This document shows positions 20,641 through 39,100 of a stretch of 64,000 nucleotides of DNA, in pieces. Positions within the stretch are counted from its first letter, which is position 1; each line of letters starts with the position of its first letter. The notes under the pieces were generated by a model. That model was not told the DNA's origin. It did no database searches and saw nothing but the letters and a program-made list of their open reading frames with translations. Both the position numbers and the translations under genes were made by a program. Source of the stretch: Botryllus schlosseri (Eukaryota); the NCBI GenBank assembly GCA_051294905.1, contig CM119371.1, forward strand, positions 4,404,001-4,468,000, written 5' to 3'.

Positions 20641-23600
20641 CGCTAAAAACTTTTACACGTGTAAAATTTATTTCATCTATAATATGGGTTATTTCATATA
20701 TTACTGTCAACTATTTATCCGTACTTAGCACACGTGATCGATTAAGCGATAGAGCTGCTGGAGGGGGTGTCGACGACAATTTTTGGCGCAATATGAATGA
20801 TGATGTATCTTCCGGTTTAGTAATCACTTTGTAGCATGTTGTTATTTTTTAACCTTCCGTCAGGATTGTAGGCATACAGGCACACGATTCCGCCTTGGTA
20901 TTTCTGTATGGGGTGCATCATTTTCCTTGACGGTTTTCATTTGTTCGGTGGGACTAAGATTGCACTATTATACATAAAATCCGAAATATACCGGCCTCCT
21001 GAATCGCACCAAGCGTGAATAAAATTTTCAAGTTTGAAATCTCTCAAAGATTTGGGAGCCTATTCGTTGATTCAAATTGCATATTGACGGACGCCAAAAC
21101 ACGCTATAATTCAATTAATATATCGGGGCCGCATAAATATTGTTTATCGGCTCCACGCAACCGTAGGTAGTATATGTGATCGGTGGCGAACCAGCGTTGT
21201 GGCTTATGGGCCCGCAGGTGACCGGCCGCGAAACTCGTGTTGGTGACCCCACCCGTTAGACCCCCCTATCGCTGGTGAGCTGCCTTTTTTCTGGTGACAC
21301 CACCCTTTCAGGCATAGCGCTCGTTGGTGACCTGCCGTGAAAACTCGTGTTGGTGACCCCACCCTTTGCGACCCCCTATCGCTGGTGACCAGCCGCATCG
21401 TTAGTGATACCACGCCTACAGGTATTGGCTGTAGCGATGACCTGTCGTTCTTATGGCTGCGATCGTGAACTAATGTTTATTCAAAACGGTGTGAAATGGT
21501 TTGCTAAATCTAGGAATCGCTCACATGGTAACATTTTGGCAATTAAGTGGTCATAGAGCCGGCGTAGCCGGCGATTTAAACACTAACAATAGCTGCGCTC
21601 GCAAACTATCACTTCAAATAGGTGTGAAATAATTGTAAAATCCTACAATCACTGACAAGATAACACCTCAGACATAGCCATCTCTCGTGACTTGCTGTTA
21701 CAGAGGTAGGAATCACTCACAAGTAATATTTTGGTAATTAGTTTGTCGCGTAACTGGATTTCACGGGCGAGATATCATAGGAATAATAACTATTAAGTAA
21801 TAGCGACGAATAACAGAACCGTCGCAGATGGCGATCCGGAAACCAACAATTTGACACTTTCCGACGATCGCTATGTCAGTGTTTTCACACCTTTGGAATA
21901 GTGGTTGACTTTAGTTGTGTGATAAGAATCATGAGAATATTCAATCAATGTAATAATTTGTCAATCTGAAATGAAACTCACTGCACAACTCGGGTTGATT
22001 CGTATCTGAATGTGTTAACTCGGCGCAACTCTATTCCTTCGAGATATCCTTTAACGCGATCTGTTGATTTGAACGTAACCCGAATATTACTGACTTCGAA
22101 TTTCAGCTGCATCGGCTTATTCACACGCTCCCACACCGCTGTTTCATACCTATAGAATCAATACCAACTATCTCAACAAGAATCAAGAATCACGATTATG
22201 CACATTGCGCATTATACAATCATTGTATTTATTACTGCGAAATCAAACTCTTAACAAAAACACTCATCTTAGCATTTACCAACTCTACCATCACCAGAAA
22301 ATTAAGGTATTGTTGATTGAAAATTCGCGAGTCCTTATTATCAAAAATGTTATAGTACGGGAATAGGAATCCATTCGCGAAATGTACTATAGGTAAATCG
22401 AGATAAACCGAAACGAACTATTTTGACTTTGCCATAGTGTGAATTGAAATAGCTTTGACAAACATGACTACCAACTTTCAACCCAGTTACATTTCGAGAT
22501 TATACACATATTGATTTGAAACAAGTAATGAAACCTTCCAACTCTATTCTCGACCCGGTTTTCCGTTTGTCAAATAGAGTTTCAGTAAATACTATCGCTA
22601 TGGAATCGCGATATTTTAATGTGGTAATACACACAATAGAGTCAATCAATGAAATAATGCCCGTTGTTGTAAACATTTCCAACTTGACAACCGCTTACAC
22701 ATAACGCGATCGAGTTGCAATGCGATGAGTTGAATTGGAATCGGAATATTTCAACCTACTTTGTCACATCGCGATTTGAAGTAGGATTGTCAGACATGAT
22801 CACAAACTTTCCCTCAGTTACATTTCAGATTACTTTATTCACACGATCACCATCTCGCTGTCTTCACACTTACACAACCGCCCATTGTTCCCACTCGCAA
22901 TATATTTCCGAATGAAAATGGTTTGTTACTCTAGGAAAAAACATATTTCCGAACCAAAATGGATTGTTAATCTAGGAAACGGCAACGGGAAGGAACCTCT
23001 TGTGCATAGTATTGCAACAGTGAAGATATTCTGTCACGTGGTGAAACAAGATCGTTGCTCAACTGTGAATGACGTATTGCGAACACCGAGTTGCTGTTAA
23101 AGAGAGAAGAGCCTACAGTAAGACCATTCTGTATGCTTCGATTAAAACCACAACGAAGACCAGTTATGAATGGATTCGAAGCAGTTCAACCTTTGTTGTA
23201 TTTAGTCAATTCGAGCCAATTTTAATACAAGTCTCCAGGTATGACTCACACACTGACACCGTAAACGGAAGTCGATGATTGTGATATAGAATAATAAAAA
23301 TATTTCTCAAGTACGTGTTCAACTAAATCGGAATTTTGATGTTGTAGAAAGTGAATAATTTGATCGAGTTGTGTGTCTGATGAAAGTGAGTGGTTACAAG
23401 TATGTTTTGACGTTAGGGAAAGAAAATTTATTTTCTGTGTCTGACAGTTAGTGACAAAATGAAAATAGATTCGTGGTTTTAATTGGATTGTGATTAAGCT
23501 GTTCAAATGTATGGCTCAACACGAAGACTTTACGCTGAACAACAATTCGACAAAACATATCCTCTGCACAATTTGTCACTGGTGTGTAAAGAGTTAGGAA

Positions 23601-28900: not shown

Positions 28901-30639
28901 CACCCTTTGTATACTTCATTAGATATTGAAGCCTATGTTGTTGTGTTAACGCATATGGCTCTACTAAAGAATTGAAAGCCATTTTAAAATCATAAAAATC
29001 ACTGGCGTTTCCTGTAAAGATGGGAGGTTCCGTGAGGGGTAATAAAGAAGGTTGGGGAACTTGGGCATACATAACCTTGGGCTCCGAATTACTGATATTG
29101 TTTTTAGGAGCAAGGAAACAAGCTTCAGCATTGGCTGGTGTCGAAATAAGAGCAGCGGGTTTAGGTCCCCGTTCATATTTTGGTAACTTAGTAGGTTCAC
29201 TACGGCCCTGCAAACAAGGGCTATCAAAATCAATCAGATCTAGCACCGAGTTAACAGTATTTGAACCCAAAGGTTGCGAACTACCTGGAATGGATGGACA
29301 ATTAAACTGAGGAATGAATTCGATGGCAGTTTCCTGCTTGACTACAGGACTCAGTCTAGTACTAAAAATTGATTGTCGGGTTTCTAGGGACTGAGGAACA
29401 AAAGGAATTTGAACGTCGGTGCGATTCATACCTGAAACATTAACAGTAGGAAGCTCAAAACCAAGCACCTTTCTCTCTGCGCGAGTTTCCTCAAGCGCAG
29501 ATGCGATTTCGAATTGGTCCCTCTGATGCCTCATACTGAGTTCATCGATCTCTCGTTGTCTAATGCGTCTCAAGGTTTCAACCTCGGACTTGTTTTCCCG
29601 TTCGAGTTCTTCTGCTTCGAGCTTTTGCTGTCGAGCAATTTCTTCCCGTCTTGATTTAATCTTTTCAAGCATTTCTTCTTCTTCACGATGATGCCGCAAC
29701 ATGAGTTGCTGTTTTTCCAGAATATGACGTTGTGAGGATGAAGCAGATCTGGCCTCCAGAACCGCTTCTTGTTGCATCAATGTCATACCCACATCTGAGG
29801 TAGACATTGTTGAGCCTGAGCCATGTGATTGAGTAACATGACTTTTTGATTTAATACTCGATCGACTGCCAACCTTTGCCTTTGATCTGGTAGTCATCAT
29901 ATGTAGATTGTCTTTGGTTAGCAATGCACTTTTGGCGCTTCTTTTCACATGACGCGAAACCATGCCAGCAGACACACAACTCGAACTTGTTCTAGTCTTT
30001 GTTTTGTTCAAGTTGTTTTTTGGCTGTGCTGCAGCTCCTATCGCGCCATAAGCTTTGGCTTGCGTTGCTAATTGTTGAATCGGGCCTTCCATATTATCTT
30101 CGGATAACACCAGGGCGTCAATTCCACGTTGATTTGATGCTAGTTGATTGGAGACCGCAACATCTTTCAACAGCTCCATTATGAAATATCCTTTGTCGTT
30201 TAGTGCAACGTTTCGTTTGATGCGATGTGATCATTAAAAACTTGTGTAACCGCAGAAATTTCAGGCCTAATCTGGGTACACGACGTAGCACTGTCAGCTG
30301 TCTTCGCTCCGGTTGAAACTTAAACACGCGTCTTCTTGGGTGAAGTACGGTTTTTAATGATCCAAATTCCCAGCGACTATACAACTGACCAAATAATTTA
30401 TAACAATCCAAATTCTTAATACAAACAAATAATACGAATTAAAATAACATGAAAGCCAAATAGAACCCTAAATACGATAATACGCATCCTAAACTAAACG
30501 ATTTGAGTCAAACAATAATATGCGACCAATACCATGCAGTGCGCCACGTGAAGTGATATATTCGAGGCGCCAAAACCATCATTCATGCGTCATAGAAAGA
30601 ATCATTGGTCCATTGCGAAGGTGGAATTCTGCGGCAACA
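25926..30639 (-). mobile_element. BEL/Pao LTR retrotransposon, internally deleted
   Basis: Apparently identical 395-bp LTRs (25926-26320, 30245-30639), TGT..ACA ends, 5-bp TSD GTGTC, PPT GGGGGTGAGGG. Confidence 0.95.
26631..30179 (-). CDS. BEL/Pao gag-protease-partial integrase polyprotein (1182 aa), lacking RT/RNase H and the integrase DDE core
   Basis: Three Cys/His knuckles (CPQCKQTH..C, CFSC...GH..EC, C...C.GKH..LLH), ALLDGAS protease motif, LRVGGR, HHCC, C-terminal W..GR....PG.D..VR.V...RPITKL. Confidence 0.9.
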   Translation of the reverse strand: MELLKDVAVSNQLASNQRGIDALVLSEDNMEGPIQQLATQAKAYGAIGAAAQPKNNLNKTKTRTSSSCVSAGMVSRHVKRSAKSALLTKDNLHMMTTRSKAKVGSRSSIKSKSHVTQSHGSGSTMSTSDVGMTLMQQEAVLEARSASSSQRHILEKQQLMLRHHREEEEMLEKIKSRREEIARQQKLEAEELERENKSEVETLRRIRQREIDELSMRHQRDQFEIASALEETRAERKVLGFELPTVNVSGMNRTDVQIPFVPQSLETRQSIFSTRLSPVVKQETAIEFIPQFNCPSIPGSSQPLGSNTVNSVLDLIDFDSPCLQGRSEPTKLPKYERGPKPAALISTPANAEACFLAPKNNISNSEPKVMYAQVPQPSLLPLTEPPIFTGNASDFYDFKMAFNSLVEPYALTQQHRLQYLMKYTKGVPHVLIKGCLHADSHSCFDKAWKILNENYGQEHQISRCCLESILGGPRFSENDRDGLAMFWAKLVSCRETLMGTNSLHEIDNIMVIDKVEDRLPEGWRSGWRSIVDNIVNVKREKLTMLDLSNYIRKKSRELETKPKINWSLSNERFVNPKGSKTSFATQMESTTASCCPQCKQTHFLNQCNIFRAMNFEQRHNFVQQNKLCFSCLQAGHFSKECYRKKPCSQAKCFGKHTTLLHPPDNNPSQSHKPIQLIKSEQNSESDKTTSSFASSIQKEAGALLPGLPVKVRVGSGGNIFTTKALLDGASRNSFITHSLLERISAKGRDVSVAVKTLNGVGSHKTETLIDNVEVSAYNGNDWVSLSTLVSTEEIPLGKYEMPLQEDIQDFPEFDGIEIPDVDCDVELLIGFDNRSIHRPREVVDGPADFYAVRTLIGWAVACERSEIKGNGKLPVSCNFTKVSTDSVCEMCSDVIDKVKTEKTCLATVVSDVPTPGIEFMDEAIKKHCNWFKLKKVIAWVLRYKDRLLSKVRGTSGGNESLPAGLLTTDEVLRSEREIIKHEQAKFYAAEMHAIANGQNLRPASTLYRLKPFIENGLLRVGGRIMEAPIAYENQHQIVVPRDSRIASAIFEWHHRLSGHSGREHVLGMVRKKYWIVRPQPKLRKIIYDCVICRKRQRQPESQQMSNLPAKRPKWIDGKCNLKIDDIVLIMDDNLPRNAWLLGRVTQLFPGKDDLVRSVRIKTKNSELERPITKLVLIQSSST

Positions 30640-30883
30640 GTGTCTACCTTCTCTTCATTTCCGCTAGTAATTATTTCGTGCGTTTGTCTATCTGTTAGTT
30701 CATCATTCTGGTGTAGGGCGTTCTGAGAGTAGCATGTGTTTCCTGATTAACTTCTGTTTTAACGTTTATATTCTTTGTAGCATAGTCTACACTTTTAGTG
30801 AATAAAAGCCTAGAAAGCCGTATATCTATTGGTGGGTTTTCCTCGCAAGCTCACAACAATTTTATTCACTAAATCTGAAGATC

Positions 30884-33150: not shown

Positions 33151-36100
33151 AGTAGTTATGTAGATCGGTCGTGAGGTGGCAGGGGTTCTTATGGGCCCGC
33201 TGGTGACTCGCCGCGAAACTCGTGTTGGTGATTCGCCCTTTTCGACCCCCCCTTCCGCTGGTGATTCGCCATGTGTTCTTATGGGTGCGGCCGTGATTCG
33301 CCTTTTTTGCTATAGGCTGCGTCGGTGACTCGCCGCGAAAACTCGTGTTGGTGACTCGCCTTTTTTACTATAGGCGGTGGCGGTGATTCGCCTGTCATGT
33401 ATTCTTACGCGGTCTCTGGTGACTCGCCATGTGTTCTTATGGGTGCGGTCGTGATTCGCCCTTTCAGGTATAGCTCGTGGCGGTGACTCGCCGTGAAAAC
33501 TCGTGGTCGTGACTCGCCTTTTTTGCTATAGGCGGTGGCGGTGATTCGCCTGTCATGTATTCTTCAGATCGGGTTATTCGCACCTTGTATACCGCTGTTT
33601 CGCACCTACAGAATAGTCTGCTGTTCACAGTCGTGACTTCACCGCGATAGCACAATATTCGCAGGTAATATTTCCGCAATAAGTTTGTCACAGAACCGTT
33701 GCACAATATCCGCGTTCACAAACTAACACTCCAAAAAGGTGTGAAATATTGGTAAAATCCCGCGATCGCTCACAAGATAATACCTAAGACATAACCATCG
33801 CTTGCGACTCGCTGTTACATACATGCCGATCGTTGACAATGTAATATTTTGGTAATTGGTTTGCCACAGAGCCGGCGTAGACGGTGATTCAAATATCAAC
33901 AATAGCCGCGTTCACAAACCAACACTTCAAAAACGTGTGAAATAGGTTACAAATCCCACGATCGCTCACAAGATAACACCAAAGACATCACCATTTCTCG
34001 CGTCTTGTCATTACATACATCCCAATCGCTACAGTGTAATGTGTCGATGGTTGTTACTATCAAGTAATAAGTAATGAATAACAGTACCAGCGCAGACCGT
34101 GATTCGAAAACCAACAATTTGACACTTGCCCGCGATCGCTATATGTTTCATGCCTCTCGAATAGTGGGTGACTTTAGTTGCGTGATAAGATCCATGAAAA
34201 TATTCAATCAATGTGTTAGTTTGTCAACTTGAAATGTAACTCACTACACAGATCAAGTTGAATCGTATTTGAATGTATTGACTCGACCCAACTCAAATCC
34301 TTTGACAAATCCTATTAACGCAATCTGTTGAATCGAACGTAACCTGAATATTACTGACACCAACATTCACCCACATCGGATCATTCACACATTCCACGCC
34401 GCTGTTTTAACAGTTATAGAATCAATACCAACTATCTCTAACCCGATAATATTCAATCATTTTGGTAATTTACCAACTTTAAATCCATTCGCGGATGTAC
34501 TAAAGGTAAATCCAGATAATCCAAAATGAAATATTTGGACTTTGACATAGTCTGAATTGAAATAGATTGACAAACATGACTTACAACTTTCAACCCAGTC
34601 ATATTTAGAGATTATACACACATTGATTCGAAACAAGTAATGAAACATTACAACTCTATTCGCGATCCGGCTTTTCAATTGCCAAAGCGACATTTTAACA
34701 TCTTACCATACTCAAAAGAATTATTCACAACATTAACAAGTGTTAAATATCTAGTTTTCACTTACTTGATTATATCACTACAACTCACAAACTTGAATTA
34801 ATTCATCCTGGTTGTATTCATATGACCGATAATTTTTTATTCAACTGTAAAGGTCGTTACTATTCTGTAAAACAAAGTATTTACTAATCGGTCCATATAC
34901 GACTTGACATAAACCTATTACATTTTGAATATACGATATTTGAATGTCTGAACAATAACTGAGAAATAATTATCACAAGTGAATCCATATACGACAGCGT
35001 AAAAGATATTGGAATGTCAGCAACTCTTCACGGTCGTAGTTACTACCACATTAACTAATTTACCCGACCAACTCGTCATGATCATTCCTGAAATCAACAC
35101 AAACATGCCCCTGTCTTCAGTTACCACAAAACAGCATCAAGTTTTAAATCCACTTGTAGCTGATGGATTATTTGATTGCATCGATAGAGAATATTATTGA
35201 ACTCGTCGGTATTGTTACTACAACAAATTTTCGCTTACACCGACTGCGAAAGTTAATATCGAATGGTAAGTCTTGACCGCATATTTGTTGAACACAGACA
35301 TGACAAAGAACATTACCGAGATTTTATAAACTAGTCATATTACTTTTCACATCTATCAATATCAGAATACAAGTAATCAAACTTTTTGTTAAATGTAACA
35401 TAGCACTTTTGGAATCGGATTCGTTATAGTCATACAAATTGTATTAAATCCAACATCAAAACAAAAGGAATTTTTTTAGTTTATTGAAATCAAATCATTC
35501 GTCTTCGACTTGTGCTTTTCTAGATTGCACGCAACAATTCGTTACGAATGAGCTGTAACCAAAGTTAAGAATTCTTTGTGTCCACAGATATAGAAGATGA
35601 ATATAGCTAACACAATCACGAATCGACGTTTCAGAGTATTTCACGGATGTAATAAACTTGTTAGTGTGGCCTATCTAAAAGTATGCATGCGTTCGATTTC
35701 CATACCGACTGTTGCGATGTTTAGGATTCGCTTACAATGACCAAGAGTGAGGATTTAACATCAATGTCGTTACTGGAGGTATTCACAACAGAGAATCGAA
35801 ACATTACACAGTGTGAAAATATATCTTTGATATCAAAGCACTATCCCAAGTACACGATTAATACTCAACTCCGTTCACACTTTCTATAGAACGTGCTAAA
35901 TGTAAAATATCACGAGGTTGCACTCTAAGACTTTGATCATTACAAAAGTAAATTGAATATGTTTGCTCGACGCATTCAATTCAACTAGAAATGTCTAGTG
36001 CACAACAATCGTAATATTAAGGAAGTACTTGCTACACTGTAATTCACTAAACGTGTTTTGCATTGTTGTTCATTTGTAGCATTGATTGAAATTGTTTTTT

Positions 36101-39100
36101 GAACCCTCAAATAATAATTCCCGACATGAAACCAAACCGCTGAAAGTCGTTACCAACACAAAGAAACACTTTGTACGATGTTTGCCAAATGTACCCTATG
36201 GTTAGGTGTACTAGAATTATTTGTGTAACACATACACCGACAATGTAATCGAAAATTTTTCCGTTGTCATTCGCTAAAGTAAATGTCATCACAATACTCT
36301 GTCACTAAAGATCTTACTTGTATCTGATTGAATCACCGATAATTAACTCGCTAAATCAAACCATAAGGAAATTTCACTCACTCATCAGATATGAAACAGC
36401 GTCGCTTAATCGGTGTAGATCGTTTTTCTAAATGCAAATCATACCTGACCAACAGAAAACAATTTTCACTCACCTTGTAATGAAACCAAGTGTAGTGGAC
36501 CTTCGTTCAATATTTTGTTTGTGTCAAATACTTTGCAATAAACACACTGGAGTGGTCGAGCTTTACATCAGCAGACTGTAATCTGTAAATCAAGCTTACA
36601 TCCGACTTGTAACTGTATCGTTTACCTAACCGAGTTGTATGCACAGTTTGATATTTTTTGTTATTTGGTAATTGCTGAATATACTACTTCGAAATACTCC
36701 CTTGAACGTAATTTCCATCATCGTAATAATCGAAGTACATTTGTGTCGAATTCGTAACAGCCGACTATGACATGATAAATTTTTGACAAGTTATGCTTGG
36801 AAGATTGGTTGTATATCACGAAAAATAATTACCGCTCATATTCATACTGTTATCCATTGTTCGGTATTTTTAAACGAGTAAAATTTATTACTTGAGTTAC
36901 TCCGCTTAATGCAAATGTAAACACAACCGTCTTTCAACATCGCAAAGACATCGATACAAAGTATACAATCAAACGCAACAAGTTTTACTTTTGTAGGTTG
37001 TGTATGGTTATCCTGCATAACTCATTTCTTACCAAAGCCATATGAAATATATTCATGTTACACGAAAATATTCACTCATGCTACAAACCTGTACAATGAT
37101 TGGTGGTGCTTTCAAACTGTTTCGATACCTCAAGAACTTTATTGTCTGAATGGTTGTTCATGTATCACAATAATCAAGTAATTCAACACAGAACTAGTAT
37201 TAACAGAAACACCAAAGTTGTTTACACAAAAGTTTGTATGTGTACAGTATACGAATACCATGTGTAAGTCCAGCACAATTGTGGACGAGTTTAGTTAACA
37301 CAATTTACGACACCGAGGTCGCGTCATCTTTCGTAAGACAACAAACCAAGGCTTCAGGATATGTCCATGTCATAGCAATGAATCAGCTACTCCAACAACA
37401 GAGTGCATATGTTTTCTAGTTACGGTGCTTACATCTTACACACAAATCAATCTACTTTGCTAACGAAAAGTGGTGAGTCATCATATGGTTATCCTCACTA
37501 GTAAAACATACTATCATACAAAATGGTCGTTATAGTTTGCACACCAACGGTACATCGTACAAGTAACAATTCTCGAGAATCCAGTTATTCAAAAAACGTG
37601 AAAGTATTTCTACACCAAGTCGTTATGTTGACGAAAGCGTATATTGTAATATCATGATCAATTTGCATTCGTTGGTCACAAACTGTCACTACTCCAAATA
37701 ATTCTTTTTCACTCAAACACAAACGCACACTTGTCACCATTCGTTTTCATCAAGTACGAGTTCAAGAAACTTACTACGACATGAATTTTTATTTTTATGT
37801 TGTGTAAATAGGTAATAATTAATTCAAGTAACACTATATCAACATCATCGAGTTGTGCTAATAGATTTACATGTGGTCTTGTGGTTTTCATCGGGACATA
37901 CAGCACGAACTATCTGTAGACTCCTCTCTGTTGTACAGCTACTCGGTAATCGAAATGCATTAACATGTAAACAACGATCTTGTTTCGTCACACCAAAAAA
38001 TATGTTCACTGTCGCGATACTCCGCACAAGACGTGCATAGCCTTTGCACACTCGTAATAGTATACCAACGTCAAGCGATAACGTTTAACAAGACCAACGA
38101 CACTGACTCCACGACGTTTACCTATGTAAAATTACCACTTTCACTTGCCAGTCCATCGTTTACCTGACTAAACATATTATTTTCCTTTGGAGATCTGACG
38201 TTTACCCAGAGTAAGAAACCATTTTCACTTGTAAATATATTTTTTCCTCGGCTAACAAACCTTTTTCACTCGGAAATCTATTTTTTCTCTGGTTAACAAA
38301 CCTTTTTCGCTTGGAAATATATTTTTTCTCTGGTTAACAAACCTTTTTCACTTGGAAATATATATTTTTCCCCGGGTAACAAACCTTTTTCCCTGAGCAA
38401 CAAACCATTTTAACTTGGTGGTCCGTCGTTTAGTCGAGTAAAAATATCATTTTCCTTTGGAGATCCGGCGTTTACCCAGTGTAACTATACATTTTCGCTT
38501 GGAAAAATACTTTTACCTAGAGTAACTAATCATTTTCTCCTGGGTAACAATCCCTTTCCGTCTGGAAACTATCATTTAACTGAGTACCAATACCGTTTTC
38601 ACTTGGAAATACATTTTTTCCCTGGGTAACAATACCATTTTCGTTTTGAAAACTGACAACCACACCGGCCAATTTGATGTTTTTGTATATTGTTACAACG
38701 AAGAGTGACGGAAATATACACAGACTACCGGTTTTAGAGTATACCCCATCGGTCGTATCACATCAATATCATCGGTTAACCACATACAATATACTCTTGT
38801 ACACCGAAATGCACGCTTTGGAAAATTGGACAATAGGCTGCGATAGTTCTGCGATGTCCGGGTTCGTGCTTTGGATTTTCCAGAGTCAAAATGTCTGAAT
38901 AAAACACCTCCTCGACGACGGTTGGTATGTGGATAACGGTGTTCGGAAAACGGTTGGATTTATGTCACCCATCACGATAACAACTCCAGGTCGAGTTTTC
39001 CTCCCGCATGTTTACTATATTGTGTCTTTATTGGTCAATGTATGTCTCGACATTCAGTTTGAAATCGGAAACCCTGATAAAGTATGTAACCGGATCCGGA

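Follow-up and report, generated by a model that had tools for sequence, protein, structure and literature searches.

Covarying complementarity between the post-LTR leader and the LTR in a BEL/Pao retrotransposon family of Botryllus schlosseri, a candidate for self-priming

We examined a 64,000-nucleotide (nt) stretch of the Botryllus schlosseri genome (assembly GCA_051294905.1, contig CM119371.1, positions 4,404,001 to 4,468,000 of the forward strand), referred to here as the window; coordinates are those of the window. Its minus strand carries a long terminal repeat (LTR) retrotransposon with 395-nt LTRs (TGTTGCC...GGTTACA) that are 100% identical to each other; the repeat finder gave a length of 300 nt, and 395 nt was set by eye and from the clips of RNA reads. 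The element belongs to a non-autonomous BEL/Pao family, to which we gave the name A1. An interpretation made from the letters of the window, here called the sequence-only reading, had proposed that this element primes reverse transcription without a transfer RNA (tRNA). We found that the primer-binding-site position pairs with the element's own LTR, and it is well supported that this pairing is under selection. The features at the center of the pairing are as follows.

30639-30245, minus strand: 5' LTR, placed by its identity to the 3' LTR and by read clips at 30639 that run into polypurine-tract context
30362-30350, minus strand: LTR site GATCATTAAAAAC, the proposed self-primer, whose priming 3' end would be C30350
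30241-30229, minus strand: primer-binding-site position, GTTTTTAATGATC, 3 nt past the 5' LTR

The primer-site position and its complement in the LTR

On the sense strand, the LTR ends with ...GGTTACA at 30245, CAA follows (30244-30242), and the block GTTTTTAATGATC comes next, perfectly complementary over 13 nt to GATCATTAAAAAC, just as the sequence-only reading had described. The longest complement of the first 30 nt past the LTR to the LTR was 13 nt; when the LTR was shuffled 3000 times with its dinucleotides preserved, the longest was 12 nt, reached in 4 shuffles. Likewise, complement to the real LTR did not exceed 10 nt in any of 773 windows of 30 nt taken from inside the element, and within the element the 13-mer was confined to the two LTRs. 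A single-sequence fold contains the helix (-45.1 kcal/mol; z = -3.2; 0/200 shuffles as stable), and an Rfam scan of positions 30100 to 30700 returned no match. The absence of a tRNA-type primer site carrying TGG, also claimed from the letters, held as well: no TGG was found in the first 60 nt past the LTR, and within the leader TGG occurs once, overlapping the start codon (30179). No other candidate primer site was found in the 65-nt leader.

The genome holding the window (495 Mb in 219 contigs) contains at least 41 matches to the A1 LTR, including 13 copies with both a 5' LTR and a leader. The LTR core CATTAAAAAC was kept in 29 of 30 aligned A1 LTRs. On the other side of the helix, GTTTTTAATG was invariant in 13/13 leaders; at position 11 of the block, seven leaders have A, four have G, and two have T. 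Pairing of the 10-nt core is intact in all 13 A1 copies with a leader. At the pair 30360/30231, seven copies had U-A, two had U.G, two had C-G, and two had U.U; the C-G state combines an LTR T>C with a primer-site A>G.

A second family, A2, was noticed as a diverged LTR type among solo LTRs and comprises ∼22 LTR copies. The tail of its LTR is 82 to 85% identical to that of A1, and its internal region keeps only the N terminus of gag (49% amino acid [aa] identity to A1), with no long open reading frame (ORF) and no reverse transcriptase (RT). In the three A2 copies with a 5' LTR and a leader, the LTR site reads CATCAAAAAAC and the post-LTR block GTTTTTTGATG (3/3). These leaders read TAA GTTTTTTGATGG past the LTR, an 11-nt perfect complement to the A2 LTR site, and in the 5' LTR of one copy a terminal C>T gives a G.U at the end of the helix. 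Compared with A1, an LTR T>C is matched by a primer-site A>G, and an extra A is matched by an extra T.

We tested covariation with the 16 leader-bearing sequences (13 A1 and 3 A2) over a 14-pair helix. In this alignment, 96% of cells were paired, versus 29 to 59% when the 3' partner was slid by 1 to 3 columns. Two pairs had changed on both sides and one pair was co-inserted; the covariation score was 0.102, compared with 0.066 for shuffles, and none of 500 shuffles reached it. RNAalifold predicted the same helix unprompted. Compensatory change, which the sequence-only reading had named as a check on its proposal, was therefore present both within A1 and between A1 and A2. It is important to note that the sequence is A/T-rich and partly low-complexity, as might be expected of a chance inverted repeat without function; that explanation is effectively refuted by the shuffle test given above and by pairing with compensatory changes in 16/16 leader-bearing copies of two families.

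Further observations concern the same sites. Locus L084 (G000 C1:31356118-31356290) is an A1-type LTR fragment whose similarity ends one base past the 13-mer (...GATCATTAAAAACC) and gives way to unrelated sequence; a breakpoint left by an insertion or deletion, or an aberrant product, could account for this end. The A2 element L138 (G000 C10:245495-250819) has ∼4.9 copies of a 93-nt tandem repeat near the 5' end of its internal part. In the A2 leaders of L116, L117, and L121, a primer-site-like motif, AAGTTTT(TT)GATGG, stands in two or three tandem copies; such repetition may have been left by mis-priming or mis-transfer in the course of reverse transcription. Of nine more diverged LTR copies, one had a truncated primer site that added nothing new and eight were solo or 3' LTRs, and none of four additional diverged LTR copies had a primer site (0/4).

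Coding capacity, mobility, and transcription of A1

The remaining parts of the element are listed here.

30644-30640 and 25925-25921, minus strand: 5-bp target duplication GACAC, on the 5' side and the 3' side, respectively
30179-26631, minus strand: single ORF of 1182 aa, with gag (DUF1759, CCHC knuckles), an integrase zinc finger, and a DUF5641 tail
26331-26321, minus strand: polypurine tract GGGGGTGAGGG; the same context precedes the 3' LTRs of other copies
26320-25926, minus strand: 3' LTR, placed by its identity to the 5' LTR

The 1182-aa ORF gave three Pfam matches and no others: DUF1759 (7e-9), Integrase_H2C2 (5e-6), and DUF5641 (4e-19). A protease-like DGAS motif was recognized by eye; RT, RNase H, and the integrase core were not found with Pfam. 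Other A1 copies have a variant form of ∼1416 to 1436 aa, in which an integrase-core-like stretch was seen by eye, with no Pfam match to rve. The protein of A1 is 38 to 40% identical at the aa level to that of family B, a complete BEL/Pao element of the same genome, and Peptidase_A17 (Pao family), RVT_1, rve, and DUF5641 are all present in its nearest full-length relative. Assignment to BEL/Pao, already made in the sequence-only reading, is thus confirmed by the three Pfam domains and by this identity to a complete BEL/Pao element; the gag, pol, and C-terminal domain types, the TG..CA LTRs, and the short target duplication are all those of the superfamily. The Pfam matches are BEL/Pao-typical (DUF1759, DUF5641) and are not those of a Ty3/gypsy chromovirus polyprotein.

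A1 is a recently mobile, non-autonomous family. Its recent mobility follows from the identical LTRs, from 5-bp duplications in at least four copies (matching duplications flank three other A1 copies, L002/L015, L003/L016, and L004/L014), and from intact ORFs, which were present in 10 of 12 copies at 92 to 98% identity, several of them 1198 to 1199 aa long. The point at which RT and RNase H are deleted was crossed without a gap by every same-family protein match that reached both sides, a comparison covering 9 copies that reach query residue 1111 or 1182, the remaining matches being shorter or split. Because no copy was seen with RT or RNase H, A1 is not an autonomous BEL lineage, and any cleavage must come from a helper. 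L044, a relative with 65 to 73% protein identity, has a disrupted 5' end and is without an LTR.

Repeats also flank the element. Three co-linear segments of 120 to 168 nt, 78 to 87% identical, are shared between window positions 21586-22574 and 33703-34686, ∼12.1 kb apart on either side of it; these are another repeat family or a segmental duplication. Further local repeats lie at 33258-33564 and 38134-38537 of the window.

To place the LTR site within the transcript, the following features of the 5' LTR are needed.

30639-30245, minus strand: subdivision of the 5' LTR into U3 (from 30639 to the start site), R (ending at ∼30337), and U5 (∼30336-30245, ∼92 nt)
30402-30397, minus strand: TATAAA box (CATAAA in several A1 copies, TATAAG in A2)
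30358-30353, minus strand: ATTAAA poly(A) signal, inside the LTR site, with tails beginning 15 to 17 nt downstream
30338-30336, minus strand: poly(A) addition site, between CCCAA and G, the 3' end of R, from tail reads of run X21

The RNA runs that we mapped, X23 (bulk), X21 (single-cell), X1, and X4, were chosen by species label. From X21, 205 reads mapped, with coverage from the first base of the LTR down to ∼30336 and clips into the polypurine-tract context that mark them as reads of the 3' LTR. Five of these reads carry ∼24 non-templated T (plus strand) abutting 30336, and depth drops from 8-98 to ∼0 below 30330. Because poly(A) tails abut ∼30337, the A1 family is transcribed and ATTAAA is its working signal. 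The overlap of the LTR site with ATTAAA, and its position downstream of TATAAA, both noted from the letters, are thus present, and the overlap is with a signal in use. The LTR site ends 12 to 14 nt before the poly(A) site, the whole stretch lying no more than 26 nt from the end of R; the poly(A) mapping therefore puts the LTR site within R or beside it, a position that self-priming requires.

The TATAA(A/G) box is kept in A1 and A2, 40 nt upstream of the 13-mer and 43 nt upstream of the 10-nt core. From the usual TATA spacing, we would predict a start near 30374-30368, which is 6 to 12 nt upstream of the complement and not at 30362-30358, where the sequence-only reading had looked for it. Since selection is visible at the pair 30360/30231, the RNA that pairs probably reaches at least 30360. 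Two other marks in this region were rejected: a TATAGT/TATAAT motif at 30381-30376 as promoter, which reads TTTTAT in A2, and contig ends at 30376-30385 as transcript ends, which coincide with family polymorphisms (30377, 30380). In X23, four reads on each side join the 34-nt block 30343-30376, which contains the 13-mer, to unrelated sequence; this block is therefore also expressed in another transcript or repeat.

The place of the LTR site bears on an account in which the pairing is real but structural and the true primer is something else, the helix either hiding the 5' copy of ATTAAA from the polyadenylation machinery or, by contact of the primer-site region with the U3/R copy at the 3' end, circularizing the RNA 5' to 3' and so aiding first strand transfer. 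The paired segment does include ATTAAA, which is in use, and a downstream complement exists only for the 5' copy; moreover, at 12 to 14 nt from the 3' end of the RNA, the LTR site makes a 5'-3' contact geometrically possible, and covariation proves pairing, not priming. Yet a purely structural helix would leave the element without any primer, as the leader offers no other candidate site, and the block begins 3 nt past the LTR, exactly where a priming 3' end must define the LTR edge. A matched insertion on both sides is also easy to obtain by primer copying and less easy by two independent mutations. We consider a structural role rather unlikely, although a reading to be taken seriously beside self-priming.

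Host primers and the primer site of families B and C

If the LTR match were secondary, a host RNA ending in ...AAAAAC, whether a tRNA fragment, an organellar tRNA, or another small RNA, might prime the element. A genome scan with RF00005 scored 63 of ∼36,000 candidates, from which 20 tRNA genes were taken (12 Lys-UUU, 6 Ala-UGC, 1 Arg-UCG, and 1 Ser-GCU). The leader showed no more than 5 nt of Watson-Crick complement to these 20 genes, which represent 4 anticodon types; the search for a matching host tRNA proposed in the sequence-only reading thus came out in favor of tRNA independence within a screen of that breadth. ARAGORN found no further tRNA in the window and the retrieved loci. The 13-mer had 49 genomic matches, versus 21 for a reversed control; the 13 matches outside known copies were two LTR fragments and eleven unrelated sequences, and a tRNA (ARAGORN) or Rfam family was found at none of these loci (0/13). 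As a separate observation, more than 20 tRNA genes are densely clustered in the region G000 C3:34488226-34508096, at spacings of 160 to 900 nt, and all six that were fetched are tRNA-Lys(UUU).

Two further families of this genome, B (L047-L061) and C (L095-L102), are full-length. Family B has an ORF of 2075 aa with DUF1759, RVT_1, Peptidase_A17, H2C2, rve, and DUF5641, and the ORFs of family C are ∼2080 to 2110 aa long. The priming of B and C is relevant to A1, which must obtain RT and RNase H from one of these two families or from an unseen relative. A tRNA-type primer site (TGG) is absent in A2, B, and C, as it is in A1. In B and C, a block begins 3 to 4 nt past the LTR, GTTTTTTGACAAT in B and GTTTTTTGACG in C, with a conserved GTTTTTTGAC.. 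start; 10 to 13 invariant nt are followed by 1 to 3 hypervariable positions in an otherwise conserved leader, a pattern that resembles a primer site's distal edge. The block start GTTTTT(T) is common to four families, A1, A2, B, and C, with different LTRs. A search of the whole family B element for a complement to its primer site found nothing above 8 nt, and a scan of IMG/VR with the family B polyprotein found no relative. Two family B matches, L056 and L057 (G000 C10:562963-572048), have identical scores and identical leaders and lie 4382 nt apart; a local duplication, or a tandem pair with one LTR in common, may account for them.

Two points speak for a host RNA, this shared start and the limited breadth of the tRNA screen, with 20 genes and 4 anticodon types. 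Past the T run, however, the blocks differ among families of one host (AATG, GATG, GACAAT, and GACG), there is no TGG for a CCA end, and the genomic matches speak against it as well, since the 13-mer lay in a tRNA or Rfam RNA at none of the 13 loci and the 13-mer complement of family B was not enriched (54 genomic matches versus 101 for the control). A fixed host primer does not fit because the blocks of A1 and A2, within one host, differ and each follows its own LTR. For the same reason the 3' end of a stable host RNA, such as ribosomal RNA, appears disfavored as a primer. We regard a host RNA primer as very improbable.

The best LTR complements of B (ATTGTCAA) and C (CGTCAA) both fall within an LTR motif common to the two families, ..GTCAAGTAAG; each stops exactly at the end of the invariant block, and one compensated position distinguishes them. 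It is suggestive but unproven that the LTR motif ..GTCAA followed by the poly(A) tail would complement the whole T-run block of B and C. In another reading of A1, the element does encode its primer, which is however taken from the 3' copy of the site or from another RNA packaged along with the first, a fragment ending ...AAAAAC being cut from the U3/R junction close to the poly(A) site and annealed in trans. Such a primer would explain the same covariation and would work even if transcription started downstream of 30350, and the complement of the B and C blocks to ..GTCAA plus the tail, with one position that co-varies between B and C, hints at a helper system based on the 3' end. Against it, the mapped tail junction of A1 (CCCAA and a run of A) is not complementary to the primer site. 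We know of no precedent for a primer taken from the 3' copy or a second RNA, and we hold this origin to be distinctly unlikely.

A broader possibility takes in all four families. BEL/Pao elements of this animal may have given up tRNA priming, with A1 and A2 using a self-primer in a 23- to 35-nt R fused with the poly(A) signal and the autonomous B and C, necessarily the source of RT and RNase H, using a related, undescribed primer; the candidate would be their own polyadenylated 3' end (..GTCAA and tail against the TTTTTTGAC.. block). We put this forward as a speculation that is unlikely as a whole. Were it true, self-priming would have arisen in all three superfamilies of LTR retrotransposons, and a poly(A)-junction primer would be a new way to start reverse transcription.

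Self-priming and known systems

We lean toward Tf1-like self-priming by the element's own RNA as the best explanation for A1, because the only sequence found to pair 3 nt past the LTR is a segment of that same LTR and because the two co-evolve. Priming would be from the 5' end, by analogy with Tf1. Transcription would start within the 5' LTR, at 30362 or upstream of it, as the conserved TATAA(A/G) box suggests, and the RNA segment GAUCAUUAAAAAC (30362-30350) would fold back over the remaining R and U5 (∼105 nt) to pair with GUUUUUAAUGAUC (30241-30229). If Tf1 and Tf2 are a guide, RT and RNase H of a helper would then cut the RNA after C30350, and the new 3' end would be extended through CAA, U5, and the remaining 12 to 14 nt of R. 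The short cDNA would jump to the R copy at the 3' end, whose limit is the mapped poly(A) site (∼30337). During plus-strand strong-stop synthesis, copying of the primer would rewrite the primer-site block from the LTR sequence. With the block rewritten from the LTR in each cycle, the two sites would be expected to change together, including the matched one-base insertion. In brief, we infer a start upstream of 30362, a helper cut after C30350, primer extension, and transfer through the 12- to 14-nt remainder of R; the expected primer end is C30350 (...AUUAAAAAC) and the expected capped 5' end lies between ∼30375 and 30359.

Several observations weigh against self-priming. The covariation amounts to approximately three evolutionary events, and the copy counts are not independent because each event was inherited by several copies. 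Families B and C share the GTTTTT(T) start, but the longest complement to the LTR reaches just 8 nt in B and 6 nt in C, which is at chance level, a complement of at least 8 nt having arisen in 594 of the 3000 shuffles of the LTR chance test. In family C, moreover, 3 of 6 copies have AAAATC for AAAAAC in the LTR A-run motif past the poly(A) signal, with the primer site unchanged. No RT or RNase H is encoded in the 13 leader-bearing A1 copies or in the 3 A2 copies (one of which was read through), and neither the 1182-aa nor the 1416-aa form has a Pfam match to RVT_1 or Peptidase_A17. The TATA spacing predicts a 5' overhang of 6 to 12 nt, unlike Tf1, and the mapped RNA showed no pile-up of read starts or read ends, with only 29 reads from the bulk run X23, 28 of them partial. 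A start downstream of 30350 would leave the 5' end of the RNA without the LTR site. After cleavage, only 12 to 14 nt of R would be left for the first strand transfer. The tRNA screen, with its 4 anticodon types, belongs to the same side of the balance. The proposal of tRNA-independent priming in a BEL lineage thus survives in part: the absence of a tRNA-type site, the pairing, and the covariation support it, while its carriers are non-autonomous and B and C lack a significant LTR complement.

The mode of priming is a defining trait of retroelement lineages, and BEL/Pao is the least studied superfamily. To our knowledge, proof of self-priming exists for the Tf1/Tf2 group of Ty3/gypsy alone, with predictions for a small number of copia and gypsy clades. 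If truly self-primed, a BEL lineage whose LTR and primer site co-vary would indicate that self-priming evolves repeatedly, and it would be an instance of non-autonomous elements that rely on the enzyme of a helper to make an unusual cut in RNA. Such elements would probably be missed or wrongly scored by annotation pipelines in which a tRNA primer site is demanded.

Complementarity near the primer site need not in itself mean self-priming. In Ty1, with its long-range 5'-3' RNA contacts, and in Ty3, with its bipartite primer site, the primer-site region pairs with the 3' end of the genomic RNA, which aids reverse transcription, and both elements are primed by initiator tRNA. A1 has a similar short complementarity between the primer region and the 3' end, but whereas Ty1 and Ty3 keep the initiator tRNA, A1 is without a tRNA site. 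As for Tf1, Levin is said to have reported in 1995 that its primer is the first 11 nt.

BEL/Pao elements are described as tRNA-primed. In the ICTV virus taxonomy profile, the primer is tRNA-Arg or tRNA-Gly, with an 18-nt site matching the 3' end of the host tRNA (PMC8742986), and the BEL/Pao element Achilles has a tRNA-Tyr primer and an ATTAAA poly(A) signal (PMC4580426). The words PBS, tRNA, and "primer binding" are absent from two surveys of the superfamily (PMC3118150, PMC554778). We found no report of BEL/Pao self-priming in the openly searchable literature, as far as its accessible text goes, with subscription papers and Repbase lying outside it. A1 is like the canonical BEL/Pao elements (Belpaoviridae, Semotivirus; Tas, Pao, and Achilles) in its DUF1759 gag, DUF5641 tail, H2C2 finger, TG..CA LTRs, 5-bp duplication, and ATTAAA, and it is unlike them in that an 18-nt tRNA site is found in none of A1, A2, B, and C.

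Self-priming with the geometry proposed here for A1 is established for Tf1 and Tf2 of Schizosaccharomyces pombe and has been proposed for Tj1 of S. japonicus (PMC5341516, PMC4600332). The RNA of Tf1 and Tf2 folds back, and RT cuts off the primer and extends it (PMC5341516, PMC4600332). Predictions of self-priming extend to the Tcn1 chromoviruses and the TAR lineage of copia (PMC5341516, PMC4600332, PMC6317226). For the TAR lineage of plant Ty1/copia (Houba, Osr-1), the prediction of a self-primer outside gypsy was likewise made from sequence alone (PMC6317226); as plant copia elements, its members are unrelated to A1.

Like Tf1 and Tf2, A1 has no tRNA primer site and has a sequence past the 5' LTR that is complementary to a stretch of the same LTR, which in A1 lies within R or beside it; the duplex is of similar length, here 10 to 13 nt. 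Unlike them, A1 belongs to BEL/Pao and not to Ty3/gypsy and is without its own RT and RNase H. Its complement overlaps the working poly(A) signal, 12 to 14 nt before the poly(A) site, so that R is very short, and its transcript probably starts a few nt upstream of the complement and not at its first base. As a probable self-primer, A1 would be Tf1-like in its working but stands outside the Tf1/sushi group, and its peculiarities are a primer fused with the poly(A) signal, a very short R, and carriers that are non-autonomous.

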